This document shows positions 1 to 9,577 of a DNA stretch of 64,000 bases, piece by piece. The stretch comes from Pseudomonadota bacterium (GTDB lineage: Bacteria > Bdellovibrionota > Bdellovibrionia > Bdellovibrionales > SG-bin7): the NCBI GenBank assembly GCA_034439715.1, contig JAWXAY010000010.1, forward strand, positions 54,590-118,589, given 5' to 3'. The first letter of the stretch is position 1; each line of letters opens with the position of its first letter. The position numbers and the translations under genes are program-made. The notes below the pieces were generated by a model. It made no database searches. It was given only the letters and a program-made list of their open reading frames with translations, and was not told the DNA's origin.

Positions 1-947
1 AAAATTGTCGCGTTTTTGAAACAAAACACGCTTGTTACGGGGCGACGGCAGCCCTTGCCATGGCTACAGATTGGATTCTATCGGGACGGGCGCAGGGCAA
101 AAAAGCAATAATAATAGCAAGTGATATTGCTCGCTACGGGTTGAAAACTGCAGGCGAACCCACGCAAGGTGCTGGTGCCGTGGCGATGCTGATTTCAGAC
201 AACCCAAAATTGCTAGAGTTAGAAACCAATTATGTTGGTAACTACTCAGAACAGGTTATGGATTTTTGGCGACCAACATACTCTAAAGAAGCTTTTGCTG
301 ATGGTCATTTTTCAATTCAATGTTACTTAACGGCCTTAGCAGGTTCCTACGACGCCTACAGAGAAAGTTTTACGAAACAGCATGCCGATGCTCCTGAAAT
401 GCTAGCCAGTCGTTTTGCCGCTTGTTTGTATCACGTGCCGTTTGTCAAAATGGCGAATAAAGCTCACCACAAATTAATCGAACACGAAACGAAAACTAAA
501 ATAGAAAAAGATGACCCACGCATGAATGACGTCATCAAGGACTTTAATGAGCGGGTGGCTGGTAATTTAAATCTCAACGCCAGGATTGGAAATGTATATA
601 CTGGCTCTCTGTATCTTTCGCTTTTTAACTTCCTGGAACAGAATAGCGCCAAAAACGTGGGCCGCGCGATTAGTCTATTTAGTTATGGCAGCGGCTGCAC
701 CTCAGAATTTTTTAGCGGAATTGTACAGCCCGGCGCAGAATTAGCTTTACAAAAAGTTTCGTCGCAGTCGGCATTGAATTCCCGCATTCGCATTCCCGTT
801 GATCATTATGAAAAAATGTTGAATGCATCGGCCGAATCCGACCAAAATAATGTCGAGGTTTCTGATCCTAAAACTTGGCATATTACAGGTCCGGTACTTT
901 ATTTAGGAAATAAAGACCACAAACGACAGTATGCCGTTAATCAGTGA
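1..947 (+). CDS. mvaS: Hydroxymethylglutaryl-CoA synthase, 5'-truncated by the window edge
   Basis: The frame is open from base 3 and reads NCRVFETKHACYGATAALAM (catalytic Cys motif); also GEPTQGAGAVA, DFWRP, YHVPF, GNVYTGS, FSYGSG. Confidence 0.9.
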   Translation, partial: NCRVFETKHACYGATAALAMATDWILSGRAQGKKAIIIASDIARYGLKTAGEPTQGAGAVAMLISDNPKLLELETNYVGNYSEQVMDFWRPTYSKEAFADGHFSIQCYLTALAGSYDAYRESFTKQHADAPEMLASRFAACLYHVPFVKMANKAHHKLIEHETKTKIEKDDPRMNDVIKDFNERVAGNLNLNARIGNVYTGSLYLSLFNFLEQNSAKNVGRAISLFSYGSGCTSEFFSGIVQPGAELALQKVSSQSALNSRIRIPVDHYEKMLNASAESDQNNVEVSDPKTWHITGPVLYLGNKDHKRQYAVNQ

Positions 948-1755
948 ACCGACCTAATACCGGCGATAAGAGCAATAATATTACCGGTATTGAGGCAAAT
1001 AAAACCACAATAAACGCACCTGCGGGCAGATCCCAGATGTGACTTAGGGTCATACCAATAAAGCTTAAAGCAAATCCTAGAGCCCATCCAAAAAAAAGGC
1101 GAGCACGAATACTATTAAAAAACAAGGTTCCCACGACAGCGGGTACAATTAAATAAGCGAATACCTGCAGTACTCCGGCGACGCTCACAGAGGACGTAAT
1201 GACTACGCCGAATAATACATAAAATAGAAAGTCCCAATACCCCGTCTTTTCTGTTTTTTTGCCAAATGAGGCCGCAATGAGTTGTCTTCTAAAAACAAAA
1301 TGAATACCAGCAACGATGCTATAAATGATTCCAGTTTTTATGACGTCAAACCAAGTTACCCACAATACCTGACCTACTAGTAGATCTTTAATGTGCTCTG
1401 CTCCATGCGCAATGCGGTCAACGACAAGAACTACAGCAGCAGAAGCTAACGCATAGACGATGCCGATGATTGCTTCTTGTGAAAATAATTTTTCGTGACG
1501 TCTTGCCAATGCAAAAAGGCCGGCGACGGCGAATGTGCTAAATAGAGAAATAAAATAGGTCCCAGCCGAATTGTGTTCAAAGCCAAATAATATCGCGATC
1601 GTGGCTCCAAAAGCAGCTACTTGCGCTAGACTGAGATCCACAAAAATCACCCCACGTGCCAGCACATGTAATCCCAAATAACAATGAATTCCGGCCAAGA
1701 TTAGACACATCACAAACGGTGCAGCTAGAAATGTTAGGGCGTTCACCAGCTCCAT
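937..1755 (-). CDS. Mn/Zn ABC-type permease (ZnuB/MntB family)
   Basis: Multiple TM helices; GVIFVDLSLAQVAAFG and GVLQVFAYLIVPA are family-like; follows the binding-protein gene. Confidence 0.85.
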   Translation of the reverse strand: MELVNALTFLAAPFVMCLILAGIHCYLGLHVLARGVIFVDLSLAQVAAFGATIAILFGFEHNSAGTYFISLFSTFAVAGLFALARRHEKLFSQEAIIGIVYALASAAVVLVVDRIAHGAEHIKDLLVGQVLWVTWFDVIKTGIIYSIVAGIHFVFRRQLIAASFGKKTEKTGYWDFLFYVLFGVVITSSVSVAGVLQVFAYLIVPAVVGTLFFNSIRARLFFGWALGFALSFIGMTLSHIWDLPAGAFIVVLFASIPVILLLLSPVLGRFTD

Positions 1756-1778
1756 TATTTATTCCTCTATTCATTTCT

Positions 1779-2702
1779 CTAGTTATTATTTTGATCCACA
1801 ATGCCTTTTACTAAGTTTTCGTACAAGTCGTCTATTGTAGCAATTCCCTCGGCGCCATCCACAGCGACAGGAACGGTTGCCGATCGAATCGAGGGAATTG
1901 TTTGTTTAATTTTTTCTGTCACCGTTGGGGCAAAATAATTTTCTACGAGTATCAATGAAATTTGGTCTTTCTTGATGGTATCTATTACTTTAAGAATATG
2001 TGCGCTGGTTGGAGGAATTCCCGGCTTTGGTTCTAGGATTACGGGATTTTCAATTTGAAATCGGTCTAAAAAATAAGTGAGCGTTCTGTGATAGGTGACA
2101 GCTTTTTTTATACCAGCCGCTTGAATTCTCTGTTGCCACTCTTTGGTTTTCTTTTGCATTCTCAATTGCAGAGCGAGCGCATTTTTTTGATACTCAGCAG
2201 TATTCGCGCTGTCAAGCTCACCTAGTCGCTCAGCAATTTTCAAGGCGATTTCACCAGTTCTGATAGGATCTAAAGTGACATGTGGATTACCAAATGGGTG
2301 TACATCACCATCGGCTCTGCTGATTCGACCGATGGGTATTTCTAACGGTTTTACAAAGGTTCCCACCTCGAGGTAGCCTTTTTGGCCCTGATTTATTTTT
2401 GGGTTCCTCGCTCCGCGGATAAGGCTGGGTAGCCAACCCACTTCTAAATCCAGTCCAATTGCAATCAGCAGATCAGCTTTGCTTACTTTAGTCATATAAG
2501 AAGGCTTGGCTTCTATAAAGTGAGGGTCCTGCGTGCCCTTAGCAATTGAGTTTACGTTAATGAATTTTTGTCCAACTTCATTTGTGATTGCGCGTAAGTC
2601 AGTAGTGGTTGTGACTACGTTAAGTTCAGCCAGAGCGCTAACTGCTGATAAATTGAAAGTACTCAATATAACGGGAATTAAAATAGAGTTTAATAAACGC
2701 AT
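1779..2702 (-). CDS. Metal-binding periplasmic protein (ZnuA/TroA family)
   Basis: Start moved to MRLLNS (ATG 2702, GGGGAG RBS); signal peptide; DPHF, GNPHVTLDP and YH metal-ligand motifs. Confidence 0.88.
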   Translation of the reverse strand: MRLLNSILIPVILSTFNLSAVSALAELNVVTTTTDLRAITNEVGQKFINVNSIAKGTQDPHFIEAKPSYMTKVSKADLLIAIGLDLEVGWLPSLIRGARNPKINQGQKGYLEVGTFVKPLEIPIGRISRADGDVHPFGNPHVTLDPIRTGEIALKIAERLGELDSANTAEYQKNALALQLRMQKKTKEWQQRIQAAGIKKAVTYHRTLTYFLDRFQIENPVILEPKPGIPPTSAHILKVIDTIKKDQISLILVENYFAPTVTEKIKQTIPSIRSATVPVAVDGAEGIATIDDLYENLVKGIVDQNNN

Positions 2703-2715
2703 TTTGAACTCCCCA

Positions 2716-3786
2716 TTAATAGGTATGCGCTGGGTGCACACCGATACTAATGTTATACTGAAGAGCCACCACATGATCCACATTGTTTTTGCCTTGTGTG
2801 TTGATGCGATTATACTGCATCCTGAATCCCGAAAATTCAGAGGGTAAGAATCCCAAGAGAATACTTTGCTTATTCTGAAATGGGATAACATCCGGATGAG
2901 GTAATCCCACATACTCATATCGTAGTTGCAGCCACCAACGCTCTGCAAATTGGTATTGTATCCAAGTAGCGACCCCGCCCAATTTTTCTGTAGTCTCTGC
3001 GGTAGTGGGTTCTGTAAATCCCCTTCGATTTGCCTGTAAATATTCGGTCGACCATATTAGGGCGTGATACTTACCACCTTTTTCAGGTCTCCATTTAGAA
3101 GTCAGATCGATGCCAAAGATAGAACTGTTTCTGTCGAGCTGGTTACGTCCTTCTGCCGCCGATAGACCAAGCTCAAGGGTTAAGTCTGAACTCAAATCCC
3201 AAAGATTTTTAATGTGTACCAACCCACCCGAATGGCGAGATTTAGGACTATTAAAGATGGTTTCATTGCTGAGACTAAACGCCTGCAACACTATCTCCGA
3301 ATACCATTTAGCAGGTATCAAAATAGCTGCTGAAACACCTGATTCATTGATGCCCTCGTCACCCAATAACGTCTGGTGAATTAATGGGGCGTCGACAAAA
3401 GGAAAAGCATGTGCGTGCAACTCATTGTGCCTTCCCAGTGCCAATTTAAATTTGCCGGCCTTTAAGATCATATGTGGTAGTGAAATCGTCTCAATAAAAA
3501 CGTCTTCGGGTTCGATGACAAACCCGGGATCACCGGCTTCTTGGCCGACCGCCAATAGTACTTTAGCTTTCGTATAAGGATCGACGTCAGCCGTAAATTG
3601 TATTTCAGCTTCTTGCAGAGAAAATCCATTGTGGGGAACATCTAAGCGATCATTTGAAATGTCAGTGCCTGACAAAAATAATCCTAAAAAATTTGCGCTG
3701 ATGTCAGGATTAAAGGCTTTTGTGTTTTGTGCAAGTGCGCCGAGTGGAAATGCGCAAAAAATTAAAATAGGTAACAGTTTAGTCAT
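2716..3786 (-). CDS. Putative outer-membrane beta-barrel protein associated with metal uptake
   Basis: Start MTKLL (3786, GGAG RBS); signal peptide; alternating beta-strand pattern; His-rich HNELHAH and C-terminal GVHPAHTY. Confidence 0.7.
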   Translation of the reverse strand: MTKLLPILIFCAFPLGALAQNTKAFNPDISANFLGLFLSGTDISNDRLDVPHNGFSLQEAEIQFTADVDPYTKAKVLLAVGQEAGDPGFVIEPEDVFIETISLPHMILKAGKFKLALGRHNELHAHAFPFVDAPLIHQTLLGDEGINESGVSAAILIPAKWYSEIVLQAFSLSNETIFNSPKSRHSGGLVHIKNLWDLSSDLTLELGLSAAEGRNQLDRNSSIFGIDLTSKWRPEKGGKYHALIWSTEYLQANRRGFTEPTTAETTEKLGGVATWIQYQFAERWWLQLRYEYVGLPHPDVIPFQNKQSILLGFLPSEFSGFRMQYNRINTQGKNNVDHVVALQYNISIGVHPAHTY

Positions 3787-3836
3787 AGGGGCTCCAAATA
3801 AATTTTGGTAATTAAAAAAATAGGAACTAAAAAACA

Positions 3837-4109
3837 TTAGGAGACGTGTGGAGGTGCCCGGGCAGGTGAGTTAAGGACTATTAAGGGCGACAATATTATA
3901 CGCTCCAACTTAGGAAGCAAATAGGTCTCAATTTGAATAGCTATTAAGAAAATAATTGGATCACAAGTGATTGTTATTGTGTTTGATTGAACTTCGCAAA
4001 TTGGACAGTGATGCTTTTCATTGTTAGACCCTTGAGGTTCATGGCTAAAGTCGTGGAACTGTAAGGCCAGAAGTGCAACAATTATGATTAAAGGCAACAA
4101 TTTACGCAT
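3837..4109 (-). CDS. DUF2946/CruR/CutF-like leader ORF (hydrophobic N-terminus, CxxC, C-terminal RAPP)
   Basis: MRKLLPLIIIVALLAL, then HDFSH, HHCPIC and SPARAPPHVS-stop; ends 50 nt before the OMP start. Confidence 0.75.
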   Translation of the reverse strand: MRKLLPLIIIVALLALQFHDFSHEPQGSNNEKHHCPICEVQSNTITITCDPIIFLIAIQIETYLLPKLERIILSPLIVLNSPARAPPHVS

Positions 4110-4117
4110 CAGAGGAG

Positions 4118-4147
4118 AGTATAGTGACTTTCAAAAAAAAGTCACTA
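4118..4147 (-). promoter_or_regulatory. -10 box TATACT overlapped by a perfect 10-bp inverted repeat (operator and/or terminator)
   Basis: TAGTGACTTT (4122-4131) / AAAGTCACTA (4138-4147); minus-strand TATACT at 4123-4118, 8 nt before the ATG at 4109. Confidence 0.5.
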
Positions 4148-4196
4148 GAAGAAAATACTCTTCGTTTAATAGGCGTGCTTATGAGCAATGCTGTTC

Positions 4197-5138
4197 CTAT
4201 TCTAGGTATCTCTGCATTTGATTATACCCTAATCTCGCTATAGCGGCCCTTTGATTGCAGTGTCGACAGAGTAGTCTTAGGTTTTTGATGTCTGAAGACC
4301 CACCCAAGCTTAGCGGGTTTAGATGATCAATCTCCAAGGCATATTCGGAACTACAATTTTGGCATTTTCCTGCAGCTTTACGCCAAACATCTTTTTTTAA
4401 TTTTATAGAAATATATTGTCTCGTGGGTTTTGTCGTTGTGATCACCGCTACTTTCGGCGCCGGCGGTATGTTTTTGGGCAAATCGATTTTCTGTTTCTTT
4501 CCTATTTTAAGTTCTCGGCGCAAAGGATCCAGTTCATTTAATGCCATTTCACAAAGTTCATTGATAAGGTCTGAGGTATTTAGGCCCGGCTTTCGATGGG
4601 CAATCAGGCCCTTAATTCGATTCATCTTAGAAAGTAAATTCTGATCAGCCGAAAATCTCACCTCAGTAACTTCTGGCGTAACTTGTCTGAATTTTTCTAC
4701 GACGGGTTTGGGCGGAACAGAAGATCTCGATATTAAAATTTTCTCCCCTTCACGACTGGATTTGTTCGAAAGTTCCTCTAAAACTTTAAACTTTTCATGA
4801 GGACTCATGGCAGACAGTTTTTCTTCTTGGTTAAAAAACGTTTTAGCTTGAACAACATTACTTAAACTCAATTCGCCTCTTGAAATTTTTTCTTCAATTG
4901 TTGGAATCTCTGTAATCATACGCATGGCCACAATTCTTCGCTGGGCCTGGCTTTCTGAATACTTAAGAGCCTGCATGCAGTACGAAAACAAACTGGGAAA
5001 TCCCAGAGCAGAATAGAGTCTTCGTCTTTGGATTTCCTGCAAGTGACGCAGGATCTCGGTTAAGACTTCGCGCTCGGATGTCACCAGTGATTTTGTTTTT
5101 TCAAGTAACTCTTTGTCAGATAAACTATTTAAGTTCAT
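4197..5138 (-). CDS. HNH endonuclease with a long helical N-terminal domain (loosely DUF222-like architecture)
   Basis: C-terminal CQNC...LEIDHLNPLSLGGSSDIKNLRLLCRHCN (HNH plus Zn-finger cysteines); start likely MNLNSL at 5138 after GGGGG. Confidence 0.85.
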   Translation of the reverse strand: MNLNSLSDKELLEKTKSLVTSEREVLTEILRHLQEIQRRRLYSALGFPSLFSYCMQALKYSESQAQRRIVAMRMITEIPTIEEKISRGELSLSNVVQAKTFFNQEEKLSAMSPHEKFKVLEELSNKSSREGEKILISRSSVPPKPVVEKFRQVTPEVTEVRFSADQNLLSKMNRIKGLIAHRKPGLNTSDLINELCEMALNELDPLRRELKIGKKQKIDLPKNIPPAPKVAVITTTKPTRQYISIKLKKDVWRKAAGKCQNCSSEYALEIDHLNPLSLGGSSDIKNLRLLCRHCNQRAAIARLGYNQMQRYLE

Positions 5139-5197
5139 AAAGCCCCCCATTTAAACCAAACATAACACGGTATTTTTCGCACGAATTTTTCCTCCTT

Positions 5198-5341
5198 AAA
5201 CCGACGCAAGCTGGTTTCTAAAAATAGAGAGTTCGCAGGCCTGCATAGTTATGGCAGCACTCAGCTAAAGGCCCGCAAGTGACTTTAACAAGGGTGCAGT
5301 GCTGGCGATGCAATGACGTATAAATTTTTTCGAAAATTTAT
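5198..5341 (+). ncRNA. Candidate structured non-coding element next to the HNH gene
   Basis: Hairpins AAACC/GGTTT with C-GCAA-G loop; nested TGCAT/ATGCA, CAGCACT/AGTGCTG, TAAAG/CTTTA with C-GCAA-G loop; ATAAATTTT-TTCG-AAAATTTAT. Confidence 0.35.
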
Positions 5342-5412
5342 TAAACTGATGTCAAGGAAAGTTTAAAAAAATAATACCAAAATATTAAAAATGGAATTAA
5401 CTTGTATGAAAA

Positions 5413-5880
5413 TCAGTGAATGATTTTTAGGCCCTTAAGACTGTAAGGCACTTGGGATTTCATGGCCTTTGTTGACTGAGCGCCAACTTTATCTGATTCA
5501 GGAGGCGTCAAAATTTGGGTTGTCCCATACTTTACCCCATCCTGAAGTTCGTAAACAGAAAAAACCACTTTCCACTGACTTGATTTAAATCGCACCACGA
5601 TTTCAGAGTGTACCGTGGTGCCGGCCTTCACGTCGTTATGGTTGACAGTTGTGGTGCCCTGCACCAGTTCCACTTCGGGGGGTAAAATCCAGTCCATGGT
5701 AAGCTCGTTATAATCTTGTGCCACGGTAGCCTTGCCGGTTAATGTGATGTCGAGGTTTGGATCATCGTATTTTGTTTGAGACGGAATTATTTCAAGTGCC
5801 AGCGGGCCCTTACTTTTAGAAATTGCACCATTTGAAAAAAGCAATAGTCCTACTAAAAAAAAATTTGAAATTAAGGACAT
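5413..5880 (-). CDS. Secreted hypothetical protein, beta-rich
   Basis: Signal peptide; overlaps the end of the upstream protease gene by 10 nt. Confidence 0.7.
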   Translation of the reverse strand: MSLISNFFLVGLLLFSNGAISKSKGPLALEIIPSQTKYDDPNLDITLTGKATVAQDYNELTMDWILPPEVELVQGTTTVNHNDVKAGTTVHSEIVVRFKSSQWKVVFSVYELQDGVKYGTTQILTPPESDKVGAQSTKAMKSQVPYSLKGLKIIH

Positions 5881-7622
5881 ACTTGTGCTCCTCCCGCGGT
5901 CAAGGTGTAGTTAATGCTCCCCGCGCCAGTATAATATTGCACGACCACTAAATAATGTCCAATTGCTAAGGAGGGCGTTAACGATACACTTCCATTATCA
6001 GTAGTGCTGTCGTTAAAAAGGACCATGTCTGAAACATCAAGTTCAATGGGGCTATAGTTATTAAAGAGATTGTGGTCGCGTCTCATAATAAATAAATCCA
6101 TATCTTCGCTGCCTGGAGAGGAATAATTGAGGGTAAAATTTATAGTACCATTTGATGTTTTGATATAATCCCAATAATCAAAAGAGATATAGGCGCCACT
6201 TCCATTAGTGGCGGTAGTAGTACTTTTAGGAATTGCAGTAGTACACGCGCCCCCTTGAACCTTTGTGGCGTAGCCTGTGCGATTAGCGACCTGATTCTCA
6301 CTACCTAAAAGTGCAGTGTAGCTGGTGCTGCCAGAAAATGCCGCGTGAACTTCTTGAAAAAGTCCGAAAGACCTAAAGTTTACGCTTAATGTTTTTAATG
6401 CTGTAAATGCGGCCCACAGTTGATCAAAAGTGCCGGCGCCATTTACAGTATCAAAGCTATCGTCCCCAGCATTTGTGGCGTCTACGGCGTCATAGAGTGA
6501 TCTCGTAATGCCAAACTCTCTAAAGTTTCCTTCTCCCGCCTCGTTACCTTTATCAAAACAACCAGAACCGGGTATGTTTTGAGTTTGGCAGATATATTCT
6601 GTGCTCACATTAAAGTATATCTGCGGAGACCCGCTTATGTTTCCGACAGTGTCGCGGTAAAAAGAAACTCCAGTAACTGCCGCTTGTAAAAAATTTGCCC
6701 AACCTTCGCTCCACGCTAGCCGTGCATCAATCGCCGTTGTGCCCGAATGGCCACCGCCGGGAGAGTCAGACGTCGAATAGTGAGCTTCGATAAAATGGCC
6801 ATACTCGTGAATAATAATTGAAGAATCAAAATGATCGGTATCCGCACTGTCGGTATCGCCGCTAATGCCACCCAAGATATATAAATAATCTTGGCTAGGC
6901 ACATAAAAACTTAAGCCACTGCCATTATCACCAAGATAAGAGTTGGGATTAAAACCCTTTGTCCAATATACGTTTACCTTAAAGGTAGGTGTATAAGGTG
7001 TGCAGGTTAGACTTTGGCTCTCAAAAGATCCGGTCATGCTGGCACACGAAGCTGTTTTAGTGACCAAGTATTGGTTGGTGTCTAAGATTTTATCTAAAAT
7101 GTTAAAAGCACCGCCCTCAAGAGTTCCGGTAGCAGGGGCAGTAATTGTACCAACGCTTTTTGAGGAATCAGGCGTAAATGTTGTTGAAATAGTATAGTGG
7201 GTATTGCTTGTCGGATTATTAAGTATGCTAGCTTTATACTGTGAATTATTGGCACGTGAGCTTATTTTCACGGTCCATGTCTCGCCAGTCGTGTTTGCCT
7301 GAAAAGAAAAATTCCCGCTGCCGTCAGTTTCTGCACATTGAGCAATAGCACCGGCTTCGTTATAAACGACGACTTCGGCAAAGCGAATGGGTTTTGGTGT
7401 TGGATCAACTCCACCCAGGCCGCTCGAAGAGGATGTGCGAAATTGGTACTTGGCTGTACCAGTAATAGTTGCCGGCGAAGAATAGGTGATAGAATTTGAA
7501 CAATAATTCGCCTCAGCTCTCACCGAAACTGAAGTATCAGGCCGGTTTTTGCCACACCCTGAGTAAATCAAAACTATCGCGAGCGGGAGTAATGGAATGA
7601 GTAAAAATTGGCGGCCAATCAT
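5871..7622 (-). CDS. Lipoprotein zinc metalloprotease (gluzincin-like) with a C-terminal PPC-like domain
   Basis: Lipobox-like YSGC; HEYGH followed by AWSEGWANF; C-terminal DMDLFI...GHYLVVV; start moved downstream of the sigma28-like promoter. Confidence 0.7.
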   Translation of the reverse strand: MIGRQFLLIPLLPLAIVLIYSGCGKNRPDTSVSVRAEANYCSNSITYSSPATITGTAKYQFRTSSSSGLGGVDPTPKPIRFAEVVVYNEAGAIAQCAETDGSGNFSFQANTTGETWTVKISSRANNSQYKASILNNPTSNTHYTISTTFTPDSSKSVGTITAPATGTLEGGAFNILDKILDTNQYLVTKTASCASMTGSFESQSLTCTPYTPTFKVNVYWTKGFNPNSYLGDNGSGLSFYVPSQDYLYILGGISGDTDSADTDHFDSSIIIHEYGHFIEAHYSTSDSPGGGHSGTTAIDARLAWSEGWANFLQAAVTGVSFYRDTVGNISGSPQIYFNVSTEYICQTQNIPGSGCFDKGNEAGEGNFREFGITRSLYDAVDATNAGDDSFDTVNGAGTFDQLWAAFTALKTLSVNFRSFGLFQEVHAAFSGSTSYTALLGSENQVANRTGYATKVQGGACTTAIPKSTTTATNGSGAYISFDYWDYIKTSNGTINFTLNYSSPGSEDMDLFIMRRDHNLFNNYSPIELDVSDMVLFNDSTTDNGSVSLTPSLAIGHYLVVVQYYTGAGSINYTLTAGGAQVCP

Positions 7623-7629
7623 CATGATC

Positions 7630-7656
7630 TTATCGGCAAAAGAACCACAAAAATTA
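7630..7656 (-). promoter_or_regulatory. sigma28 (FliA)-like promoter
   Basis: Minus strand TAAT-N15-GCCGATAA versus consensus TAAA-N15-GCCGATAA. Confidence 0.6.
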
Positions 7657-7701
7657 AGTCTCATATTGAAACACTCTCGTCTCTATTGTATAAGAATAAA
7701 T

Positions 7702-7959
7702 ATGGAAAAGGGCTGCAATTCTGACATCACGGCTTTAGGCAAATCGTACCATGTCCAGACTGAGGACTGGGGCCTTAAAAACCCATTTATTGTTAGCCAA
7801 ATATTTCGCAATGGTGCAATTGTGAAAAGTGTAAAGAATCCCTACGAAAAAATACTTCCGCGTGGGCTAAGGTCTGATAGTCCCTCCATTCGTCTGGCTC
7901 TACGCAAGCAGCATCAAGAAATTCTAGACCTTCTCAATTCTGGTCAATTCGTTCTATAA
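7702..7959 (+). CDS. Small hypothetical protein (YHVQTED motif)
   Basis: Start MEKGCN at 7702; directly upstream of ftsE. Confidence 0.6.
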   Translation: MEKGCNSDITALGKSYHVQTEDWGLKNPFIVSQIFRNGAIVKSVKNPYEKILPRGLRSDSPSIRLALRKQHQEILDLLNSGQFVL

Positions 7960-7975
7960 CCGTTAACATATAAGA

Positions 7976-8659
7976 ATGATTTCACTATCTCATATTTATA
8001 AGACCTATCCCGGGCCCATTCATGCACTCAGTAATTTTGATTTAAATATAGAAAAAGGGGAGTCGGTATTCATAACTGGTCCCAGTGGCTCAGGAAAAAC
8101 AACTTTGTTTCGTTTGGTGTCTGGCTTTGATCGACCCAGTTCGGGAGCGATTTCTGTCGCTGGATTCAATATCAATGAACTTACTGAAAAAGAAGTTCCC
8201 TATTTTCGTAGAAATATTGGTGTCGTGTTTCAAGATTTCAGATTACTAAAAGATCGTACCGTTTTTGAAAACGTTGCATTACCTCTTGAAATCAAAGGTC
8301 AAAAATTTGTCGGTATAAAACAAAAAGTAAATGAGATGCTCGATATTGTTGGTCTCACGTTTAAGCGCGAACAACATCCGGAGCAGCTGTCGGGCGGAGA
8401 GCAGCAGCGGGTCGCTATTGCGCGCGCCCTCATTCATCAACCAGGCGTATTAATAGCGGACGAGCCGACAGGTAACTTGGACGAAGAGCTAAGTTTGGGA
8501 ATAATGGAGCTGCTAGATAAGGTCAATGCTCAAGGCACCACGGTACTAATTGCCACTCACGATATGGACCTCGTCAAAAAAAAGCGGCGCCGAGTGATTC
8601 AGATTAAATCAGGTAACATTGTAAAGGACTCAAAAAATGAACCAAATGCTTTGGGCTAA
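7976..8659 (+). CDS. ftsE: Cell division ATP-binding protein FtsE
   Basis: GPSGSGKT, RRNIGVVFQDFRLL, LSGGEQQRVAIARA, ADEPTGNLD; upstream of ftsX and envC. Confidence 0.93.
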   Translation: MISLSHIYKTYPGPIHALSNFDLNIEKGESVFITGPSGSGKTTLFRLVSGFDRPSSGAISVAGFNINELTEKEVPYFRRNIGVVFQDFRLLKDRTVFENVALPLEIKGQKFVGIKQKVNEMLDIVGLTFKREQHPEQLSGGEQQRVAIARALIHQPGVLIADEPTGNLDEELSLGIMELLDKVNAQGTTVLIATHDMDLVKKKRRRVIQIKSGNIVKDSKNEPNALG

Positions 8660-9577
8660 TTTAAAGAGAACCTGGACCCATCACTTTGGAACTCAGATGA
8701 CTACTCTCATAGTATTGGCGGCATCATATGCGATTATTTGTTCATTTTTGACCTTAGGTCAAAATTTGAGAAACATTTTATCGCTTTGGGGTGACTCAAT
8801 TCAAATGACGGTTTTTTTAAAGGAAGAAACAAAAGAAGATAGTGGCAACGAAAAACTGACTCAACTAAAAACGAGGCTACAAGCTATAAACGGCGTAGAT
8901 GATGTAAAATATGTTTCGAAGCAAGAGGCCGCCGAAAAATTTAAAATGGAAATGTCGGGCTTTATGCCAGAAGTCTTTCAGGACGAAGAATTTATCGCAC
9001 CATTTCCATCGAGTTTTATTATAAGTTTCAAAGACCAACTAAAGCAAAAAATCGACACCCTAAGGCTTGCAGAAATTGCTAAACAAATATCAGGTTTTGA
9101 GGGAGCCGAGGACATTGCTTATGGTCAAGACTGGCTCAACAACTATGCCAGCTTTATTAAGGGAATAAATAGTATGGGGCTGGCATTGGTTTTAGTTCTC
9201 CTTTCAGGAAGTGTCTTCGTAGTCGGCACCTCTATAAAGACTTCTATTTCTGCGAGACGCGATGAAATCGAAATTATGGAACTCGTCGGGGCTACAAGTC
9301 AGATGATCAGGTGGCCCCTTGTCGTCGAAGGACTTTTTTTAGGACTTTTGGCTTCAACTGTGGCTGGTTTCTAACTTTTTTTGCTTTTACCTTTGTTAGA
9401 GAGTCCATGGCCACCCAGGCTTTTTTTCTAGCAGTTCAAAGCCAGTTCCAATTCTTAAGTGGGCTATATGTTTTCCTGTTCATTAGTACGGGAACAATTT
9501 GTGGAGGGCTAAGTGCCTTCTTCTTTGCAAGAAAGCTAAATCACGGATGGTTGGCATCTCAGAGATCCGAAGTTTGA
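8637..9577 (+). CDS. ftsX: Cell division permease FtsX, frameshifted near 9368-9372
   Basis: TM1, periplasmic domain, RRDEIEIMELVGAT...IRWP..VEG; frame 1 stops at 9374 and the last TM helices continue in the 9311-9577 frame. Confidence 0.85.

Follow-up and report, generated by a model that had tools for sequence, protein, structure and literature searches.

A CruR-like candidate arrest leader precedes a zinc-type omr-znuA-znuB import operon in a member of the Bdellovibrionota

The window analyzed here, a 64,000-nt stretch of contig JAWXAY010000010.1 (GenBank assembly GCA_034439715.1, positions 54,590 to 118,589), carries on its minus strand a short leader ORF followed by genes for an outer membrane protein (OMP), a ZnuA-type binding protein, and a ZnuB-type permease. 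The leader ORF runs from an ATG at 4109 to a TAA at 3837 and encodes 90 aa. The initial annotation had described an ORF of this length with a hydrophobic N-terminus, HDFSH and HHCPIC motifs, RAPP near the stop, and a 50-nt gap before the OMP gene, and we confirmed all of these features; position 3786, given there as a boundary of the ORF, is instead the ATG of the OMP gene. Approximately residues 1 to 17 (4059..4109) form a putative signal peptide or membrane anchor (best 15-residue Kyte-Doolittle mean, 2.8; predicted helix, residues 5 to 22). HDFSH at residues 19 to 23 (4041..4055) supplies the His pair H19xxxH23, putative metal ligands; HHCPIC at residues 33 to 38 ends in C35xxC38 (3996..4007); and RAPP at R84 to P87 (3849..3860), three codons ahead of the stop, is followed by HVS and the TAA. 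A structural model of the leader (pLDDT 71.8, pTM 0.39), used for secondary structure only, places H19 within the predicted helix and H23 at its end. Of the 19,005 stop-to-stop segments in the whole genome that reach 50 aa, 7 have an R[AG]PP motif within 10 residues of the stop, and by our arithmetic the chance of meeting such a segment is about 0.06% per 600-nt interval.

The OMP gene (2716..3786) encodes an omr-type porin, assigned from a weak BBP2 match, from matches to porin and omr clusters in the ESM Atlas (TM 0.86), and from its Vibrio homologue; a single-sequence AlphaFold prediction of this protein reached a pLDDT of 28.7. An alternative in-frame ATG overlapping the leader stop lacks a Shine-Dalgarno (SD) sequence and gives a poorer N-terminus. 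The next gene (1779..2702) encodes a binding protein of Pfam PF01297, the only such gene found in the genome; its best PDB match is a zinc ZnuA, with which three His ligands align. The three ligand sites are His in 65, 65, and 64 of 67 loci, and the fourth-ligand position is mostly Val. Manganese-type binding proteins (PsaA/MntC) have acidic third and fourth ligands; here, in a comparison drawn against zinc-type alignments only, the third site is His in nearly all loci and the protein of the window has no acid at the fourth. The ABC-3 (ZnuB-type) permease gene (937..1755, Pfam) completes the operon, and no ATPase gene lies within it (937 to 3786). An ATPase gene is likewise absent from the close-clade omr-znuA-znuB cassettes, both here and in Vibrio, and is present in distant cassettes; a search of the genome with the ATPases of the latter returned one weak match (E = 1e-10). 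An HMG-CoA synthase gene on the plus strand (60 to 947) is convergent with znuB, overlapping its end by 11 nt, and points to a mevalonate pathway in this organism.

A V. campbellii record contains homologues of all three operon genes (E = 7e-26 for the OMP, 5e-38 for the binding protein, and 2e-20 for the permease). The record NZ_CP050465.1 (2.06 Mb, 2 annotated features) is filed as a plasmid, and its size suggests a Vibrio second chromosome. The Vibrio omr-znuA2-znuB2 cassette (PMC9817125) shares its gene content and gene order with this operon and likewise has no ATPase gene, but it is controlled by Zur boxes, whereas a leader stands in their place here. Two TGTTA-N5-TAACA palindromes resembling the Zur sites of PMC4176598 lie upstream of the V. 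campbellii cassette, and no leader ORF of at least 85 aa was seen directly upstream of it. According to the same source (PMC9817125), the cassette is named in V. campbellii and placed in the Zur regulon, omr-znuAII-znuBII of V. parahaemolyticus rises 1034-, 543-, and 283-fold on zinc depletion, and deletion of the cassette's ZnuA in V. parahaemolyticus has a minor effect only.

We searched 61 relatives and 301 genomes of the phylum with the OMP as query and added 7 named loci. Judged by its named relatives, the lineage belongs to the Bdellovibrionota. With the two weakest matches of the phylum search left out, this gave 74 loci, of which 65 are close (tblastn score above 150 bits, window included) and 9 are distant. 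An R[AG]PP-ended leader lies upstream in 40 of the 65 close loci versus none of the 9 distant ones; 4 further close loci have other Pro-Pro tails, and 21, among them that of the nearest OMP relative, have no Pro-Pro leader at all. On a quick OMP tree, in which kin are not independent, the leader is spread over the close clade with about 14 changes; it therefore appears to be old and to have been repeatedly lost or replaced. Among held-out metagenome loci with upstream DNA, three of four have the leader (two are identical), and the fourth has an RRPP tail. Tails of other kinds, PKNSPP, (E)PxKKPP/RKPP/RRPP, and in Sulfurovum HAPP, occur in His/Cys leaders before the same OMP family and are possible alternative arrest motifs. 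At one locus (L195, genome G182), a second RAPP leader directly follows the cassette's znuB and precedes a gene whose 580-aa product matches nothing in Pfam or NCBIfam.

Alignment of 39 leaders (one near-duplicate dropped) had a mean column identity of 17%, yet H19, H23, R84, P86, and P87 do not vary, and C35 hardly does. Without reference to the alignment, an HxH or HxxxH motif follows the hydrophobic segment in 39/39 leaders but in only 7 of the 885 proteins of the genome whose N-terminus is hydrophobic; the His pair was not selected for, because the Pro-Pro tail alone guided the search. Every leader has a Cys 43 to 55 residues ahead of the Arg, with a full CxxC in 29/39, and the gap from CxxC to the Arg is 45 residues here and 43 to 48 in relatives. 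The stretch between ligands and RAPP is fixed in length and unconserved in sequence. The idea that additional His residues contribute to sensing holds for H19 and H23 but not for the His residues before CxxC, as a His just before this motif is kept in only 10/39 leaders. Conservation of RAPP and CxxC in syntenic homologues had been set beforehand as a test that could refute the arrest-leader proposal, and the proposal withstood it in synteny, in motifs, and in spacing. A profile built from the leaders matched 650 cluster representatives at E ≤ 0.001, and the 147 examined all end in RAPP or RGPP, 139 with CxxC and mostly with a gap of 44 to 45; because the profile itself picked this set, it does not count as independent evidence.

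The initial annotation had called for a search against DUF2946, the family of CruR. DUF2946 (PF11162) is indeed the best Pfam match of the leader, but the score (20.0 bits, E = 0.0012) is below the gathering cut-off of 23.7. Two of the 39 relatives score above the cut-off and 11 reach E ≤ 0.05, while 36/148 wider homologues match at E ≤ 0.001; neither the leader nor the 148 homologues gave a Pfam match to DUF2607 (PF10795). CruR (Bp2923) of Bordetella pertussis and our leader are both the first gene of a metal-import operon and carry an export signal (PMC9426467). Both have CxxC 45 residues ahead of RAPP, RAPP three residues from the C-terminus, and a bubble of C over G near the 3' end, and a Rho gene is present in both hosts. 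The two differ in length (90 aa versus 145 for CruR), in spacer (50 nt versus 162 nt), in the invariant juxtamembrane His pair of our family, and in its second Cys, which a quarter of the relatives lack. Above all, CruR heads a copper TonB receptor gene, whereas this leader heads a zinc-type porin, ZnuA, and ZnuB. We therefore call the leader CruR-like and not a formal DUF2946 member, because CxxC, C-terminal RAPP, the 45-residue spacing, the export signal, and the first operon position are all present, whereas the Pfam score and the copper-gene context are not those of the family. The reading of the ORF as a leader and putative arrest peptide is nevertheless well supported by comparison of synteny, motifs, and spacing.

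RAPP had been linked in the initial annotation to ApdA/ApdP; it is also CruR's own motif, on which CruR arrests in vitro, and RAPP or RGPP causes arrest in several contexts (PMC12992588). Proteomes avoid RAPP except in such leaders (PMC12992588), and the CxxC of CruR is a proven copper ligand. ApdA, ApdP, and SecM resemble the leader in combining an N-terminal targeting signal with RAPP-type arrest (PMC12992588), but the genes behind them are sec/yidC genes, and the portion of the source available describes no metal-ligand cluster in these peptides. CutF of Rhodobacter capsulatus (PMC9973294; bioRxiv 10.1101/2025.02.05.636593) is, like the leader, exported, with a Cys/His site, a Pro-rich tail, and a short spacer. 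Unlike the leader, CutF has CxxxC, a copper-induced stall that switches on a detoxifying oxidase, and a strong stem-loop at the ribosome-binding site (RBS), of which no counterpart is predicted at the leader-OMP junction. Among zinc systems, a close parallel is ZrgD (DUF2607) of the Vibrionaceae ZrgABCDE system, which is RAPP-ended with a His/Cys cluster and precedes ZrgA/DUF2796 (source data of PMC12992588), and whose ESM Atlas nearest-cluster score with the leader is 0.90. ZrgD differs in belonging to DUF2607 and in being additionally under Zur, and PMC9817125 lists it as a Zrg component whose function is unknown. Among the rows listed in the source data of PMC12992588, DUF2607 tails are RAPP in at least 137 cases versus AAPP in at least 2.

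Upstream of the leader, a putative sigma-70 promoter, GTGACT-16-TATACT (4118..4145, minus strand), places its -10 element TATACT 8 nt ahead of the leader ATG, which has no SD; a leaderless leader mRNA is predicted on both grounds. The pattern recurs in the family: among 36 leaders with an assignable start, TAnnnT lies 5 to 9 nt ahead of the start in 17, against a mean of 3.6 at shifted positions and 0 for OMP starts, and an SD is present in 4/36 leaders versus 35/39 OMP starts, the latter having been partly chosen on their SD. A perfect 10-bp inverted repeat with a 6-nt spacer (4122..4147, minus strand; 1 copy in the genome) overlaps the putative promoter and is possibly an operator or the terminator of the upstream gene. 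As a conserved operator it was rejected, as it is not kept in relatives; stems of at least 7 bp occur in the 90 nt upstream of 3/40 leaders. The gene directly upstream (4197 to 5150, minus strand) encodes a protein of 317 aa, with an HNH domain at its C-terminus and weak similarity to DUF222 at its N-terminus, and it has two paralogues in the genome. A terminator scan of 3000 to 4500 gave 0 sites, an Rfam search of 2500 to 5500 gave no credible match (one at E = 0.74), and no tRNA or tmRNA was found in 1 to 9000.

The 50-nt intergenic region (3787..3836) is U-rich and weakly structured, with the SD of the OMP gene (GGAG) at 3795 to 3792 and a bubble of C over G across the leader stop; spacers are short across the family (median, 60 nt). 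Ranked by C minus G among 2,492 gene ends, this junction falls within the top 0.2%, and in the window this richness is explained by the amino acids encoded (synonymous null, p = 0.43). Across the family, C over G exceeds the synonymous null, drawn on OMP codon usage, in 31 of 39 members, and 35/40 spacers have more C than G. The first Pro codon of the arrest motif is CCU, which yields the anti-SD CCUCC, in 22/40 leaders versus 32% in leader bodies (p = 0.0025). When a stalled ribosome was modelled, unmasking of the RBS exceeded the synonymous null in 25 of 37 loci (one duplicate and two loci with long spacers dropped) and beat all 12 nulls in 10; cognate pairs of footprint and RBS were stronger than permuted ones, although this comparison may be confounded by kinship and by GC content. 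In the window itself, unmasking amounts to 0.6 kcal/mol versus 0.1 ± 0.5 for the null, small because the SD has several weak alternative partners. This value, and a junction that folds no better than its shuffles (z = 0.35), led us to reject a strong anti-SD hairpin here.

The initial annotation had proposed Zn/Mn-type uptake, of which the zinc half is favoured by the ZnuA match and the Vibrio cassette and the manganese half is disfavoured by the three His ligands and the lack of an acid at the fourth position. Its suggestion of nickel or cobalt sensing gained no support, and no supporting neighbour gene was found. We also ran a leader-first profile search of 301 + 401 genomes of the phylum, which gave 22 matches outside the training loci, one of them a duplicate that was dropped. 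The 21 held-out matches comprise 10 omr cassettes, 2 ZrgA systems, 1 ZnuD-like TonB receptor (ZnuD is its best model, below cut-off), 4 weak matches before RND efflux operons, 3 that could not be assigned, and 1 spurious; none has a recognisable copper gene behind the leader. Since omr cases are expected from the training set, the information lies in the Zrg and ZnuD-like cases. Zinc is favoured over manganese, because the homologous Vibrio cassette is induced by zinc starvation and Zur-regulated and because held-out leaders head ZrgA and ZnuD-like genes. The ZrgA/ZrgE/ABC operons headed by the same leader type are in two Bdellovibrionota genomes (L122, L196). The weak matches before RND efflux operons (L202, L203, L206, L207) are small His/Cys-rich ORFs, three with KPP or FRPP tails, which we take to be CzcI-like; the two efflux operons scanned are both of CusA/CzcA type. 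By eye, many of at least 27 copper-receptor leaders in the PMC12992588 data have His-rich linkers, and the metal therefore cannot be told from His content alone; a fixed juxtamembrane His pair, also judged by eye, is present in 9/9 listed leaders of "zinc-regulated" receptors and is untypical of the copper set.

Searches of this genome, which is 95.7% complete, turned up neither a Fur-family nor a DtxR gene, and its three relatives of the same family likewise gave no Fur-family gene; a Rho gene is present. More broadly, a Fur-family gene was not found in genomes G000 to G003 and in 10/13 genomes of family f22, mostly at least 95% complete; this is an unusual lack, and it prompts the question of what regulates iron and zinc there. 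A general rule by which the leader takes the place of Zur genome-wide was rejected, as Fur-family genes are lacking in 13/34 versus 6/23 genomes divided by leader presence (hand count), with no correlation, and as one leader-bearing genome encodes a close homologue of an operon-linked Fur-family protein. NCBIfam could not type the Fur-family proteins of these genomes as Zur. At the level of single loci, one close locus without a leader has a Fur-family gene inside the operon together with a Desulfovibrio-type Zur box with 1 mismatch, which suggests that leader and Zur-type control may be interchangeable. Such boxes (PMC545781; up to 3 mismatches) occur in 0/40 leader loci, 2/25 close leader-less loci, and 2/9 distant loci, a distribution that is suggestive on few cases; the second close box, with 3 mismatches, is weak, and its nearby Fur gene lies downstream on the other strand.

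From the observed anatomy, synteny, conserved motifs and spacing, and zinc-type cargo operon, we propose that this is probably a CruR-type arrest leader that keeps omr-znuA-znuB on when zinc is scarce and would turn it off when zinc binds the nascent peptide. The predicted leaderless mRNA would be translated until P86 is in the P site and the ribosome stalls, by analogy with CruR, in which arrest on RAPP occurs with the third codon of the motif in the P site and the fourth in the A site (PMC12992588). With this geometry, the distance from the active centre would be 48 residues for C38, 51 for C35, 63 for H23, and 67 for H19. Given the length of the ribosome tunnel, both Cys residues would then sit just outside it, where they could meet H19 and H23 at the end of the anchor; assembly of the ligands would thus take place immediately beyond the ribosome, possibly on the side of the periplasm. 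Metal sensing is described as cytoplasmic for CruR and periplasmic for CutF. Zinc binding by His-His-Cys(-Cys) would fold or pull the chain and release the stall, and the freed junction would shut off the downstream genes. For this last step we favour Rho loading on the C-rich, unstructured junction, at slightly less than an even chance, over a route in which the CCUCC/CUCC codons pair again with the OMP SD, which we regard as a more tentative possibility; a combination of the two or some other route is unlikely.

An arrest leader of the same kind could instead sense copper or several soft metals, for example to close the importer against copper entry or mismetallation. In favour of this, the CxxC motif and its spacing match those of CruR, DUF2946 gives the best Pfam match, and His residues are common in copper-type leaders; however, the three non-homologous import systems headed by these leaders are all zinc-type, and it is the second Cys that is missing in 10/39 leaders while the His pair is constant, so we consider copper rather unlikely. 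Fixed ligands also weigh against an arrest leader indifferent to metal, which would monitor its own Sec export in the manner of SecM/ApdP or boost OMP translation in cis. A signal peptide with C-terminal RAPP is the layout of ApdA/ApdP (PMC12992588), the downstream genes all encode exported or membrane proteins, and 21/65 loci do without the leader, but the invariant His pair, the Cys at a fixed distance, and the repeated link to zinc importers would go unexplained, and we judge this improbable.

It is less probable still that RAPP is incidental and that the finished peptide acts as a small periplasmic or membrane zinc chaperone or importer subunit. The product is a small exported His/Cys-rich protein, and ZrgD is listed as a component of the Zrg system (PMC9817125), but an unconserved stretch of fixed length between ligands and RAPP, a leader that is always the gene directly upstream, and the avoidance of RAPP outside such leaders speak against it. 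Finally, a zinc sensor of opposite sign, in which metal prolongs the stall and turns the operon on, would follow CutF, in which metal acts in this direction, the signal peptide is required, and the intergenic region is short as here; as the Vibrio cassette is induced by zinc starvation and induction by zinc makes little sense for an importer, we give this the lowest probability of all.

The proposed CruR-type leader for zinc can be taken further. It is possible, although we regard it as tentative, that this is a zinc-specific arrest sensor on a leaderless mRNA, in which the His pair at the membrane end and the Cys behind it clamp zinc at the translocon exit and so draw the chain off RAPP, that it serves as the main zinc regulator where Fur/Zur is lacking, and that it is a portable module placed before three unrelated zinc importers (omr-ZnuAB, Zrg, and ZnuD-like), with Vibrio ZrgD as an unrecognised member. 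We found no paper on a zinc-sensing RAPP leader in the open-access literature, and the word "zinc" is absent from the main texts, as available, of PMC9426467, PMC9973294, and PMC12992588, although a moderate effect of zinc on bfrG is reported in PMC9426467. In Caulobacter, a DUF2946 gene heads the Zur-activated czrCBA efflux operon (PMC4176598). The surprise is moderate, as nickel and cobalt members with His-only sites have been proposed among CutF-like proteins (PMC9973294, whose available main text does not mention ZnuA) and the pairing of this leader with omr/ZnuAB is already in a published data table, the source data of a 2025 paper, where the portion available carries no comment on it. 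Roy et al. (PMC9426467) note that no riboswitch is known for copper or zinc and that protein-based post-transcriptional sensing may fill this gap. Among leaders proposed to sense metals in this way, those tested so far concern copper only, and the set of His pair plus Cys ligands would offer a direct test of whether an arrest-peptide scaffold has been retuned for zinc and of the metal selectivity of nascent chains. If true, our proposal would explain how zinc uptake is controlled in bacteria without Zur, and it would suggest a function for ZrgD.
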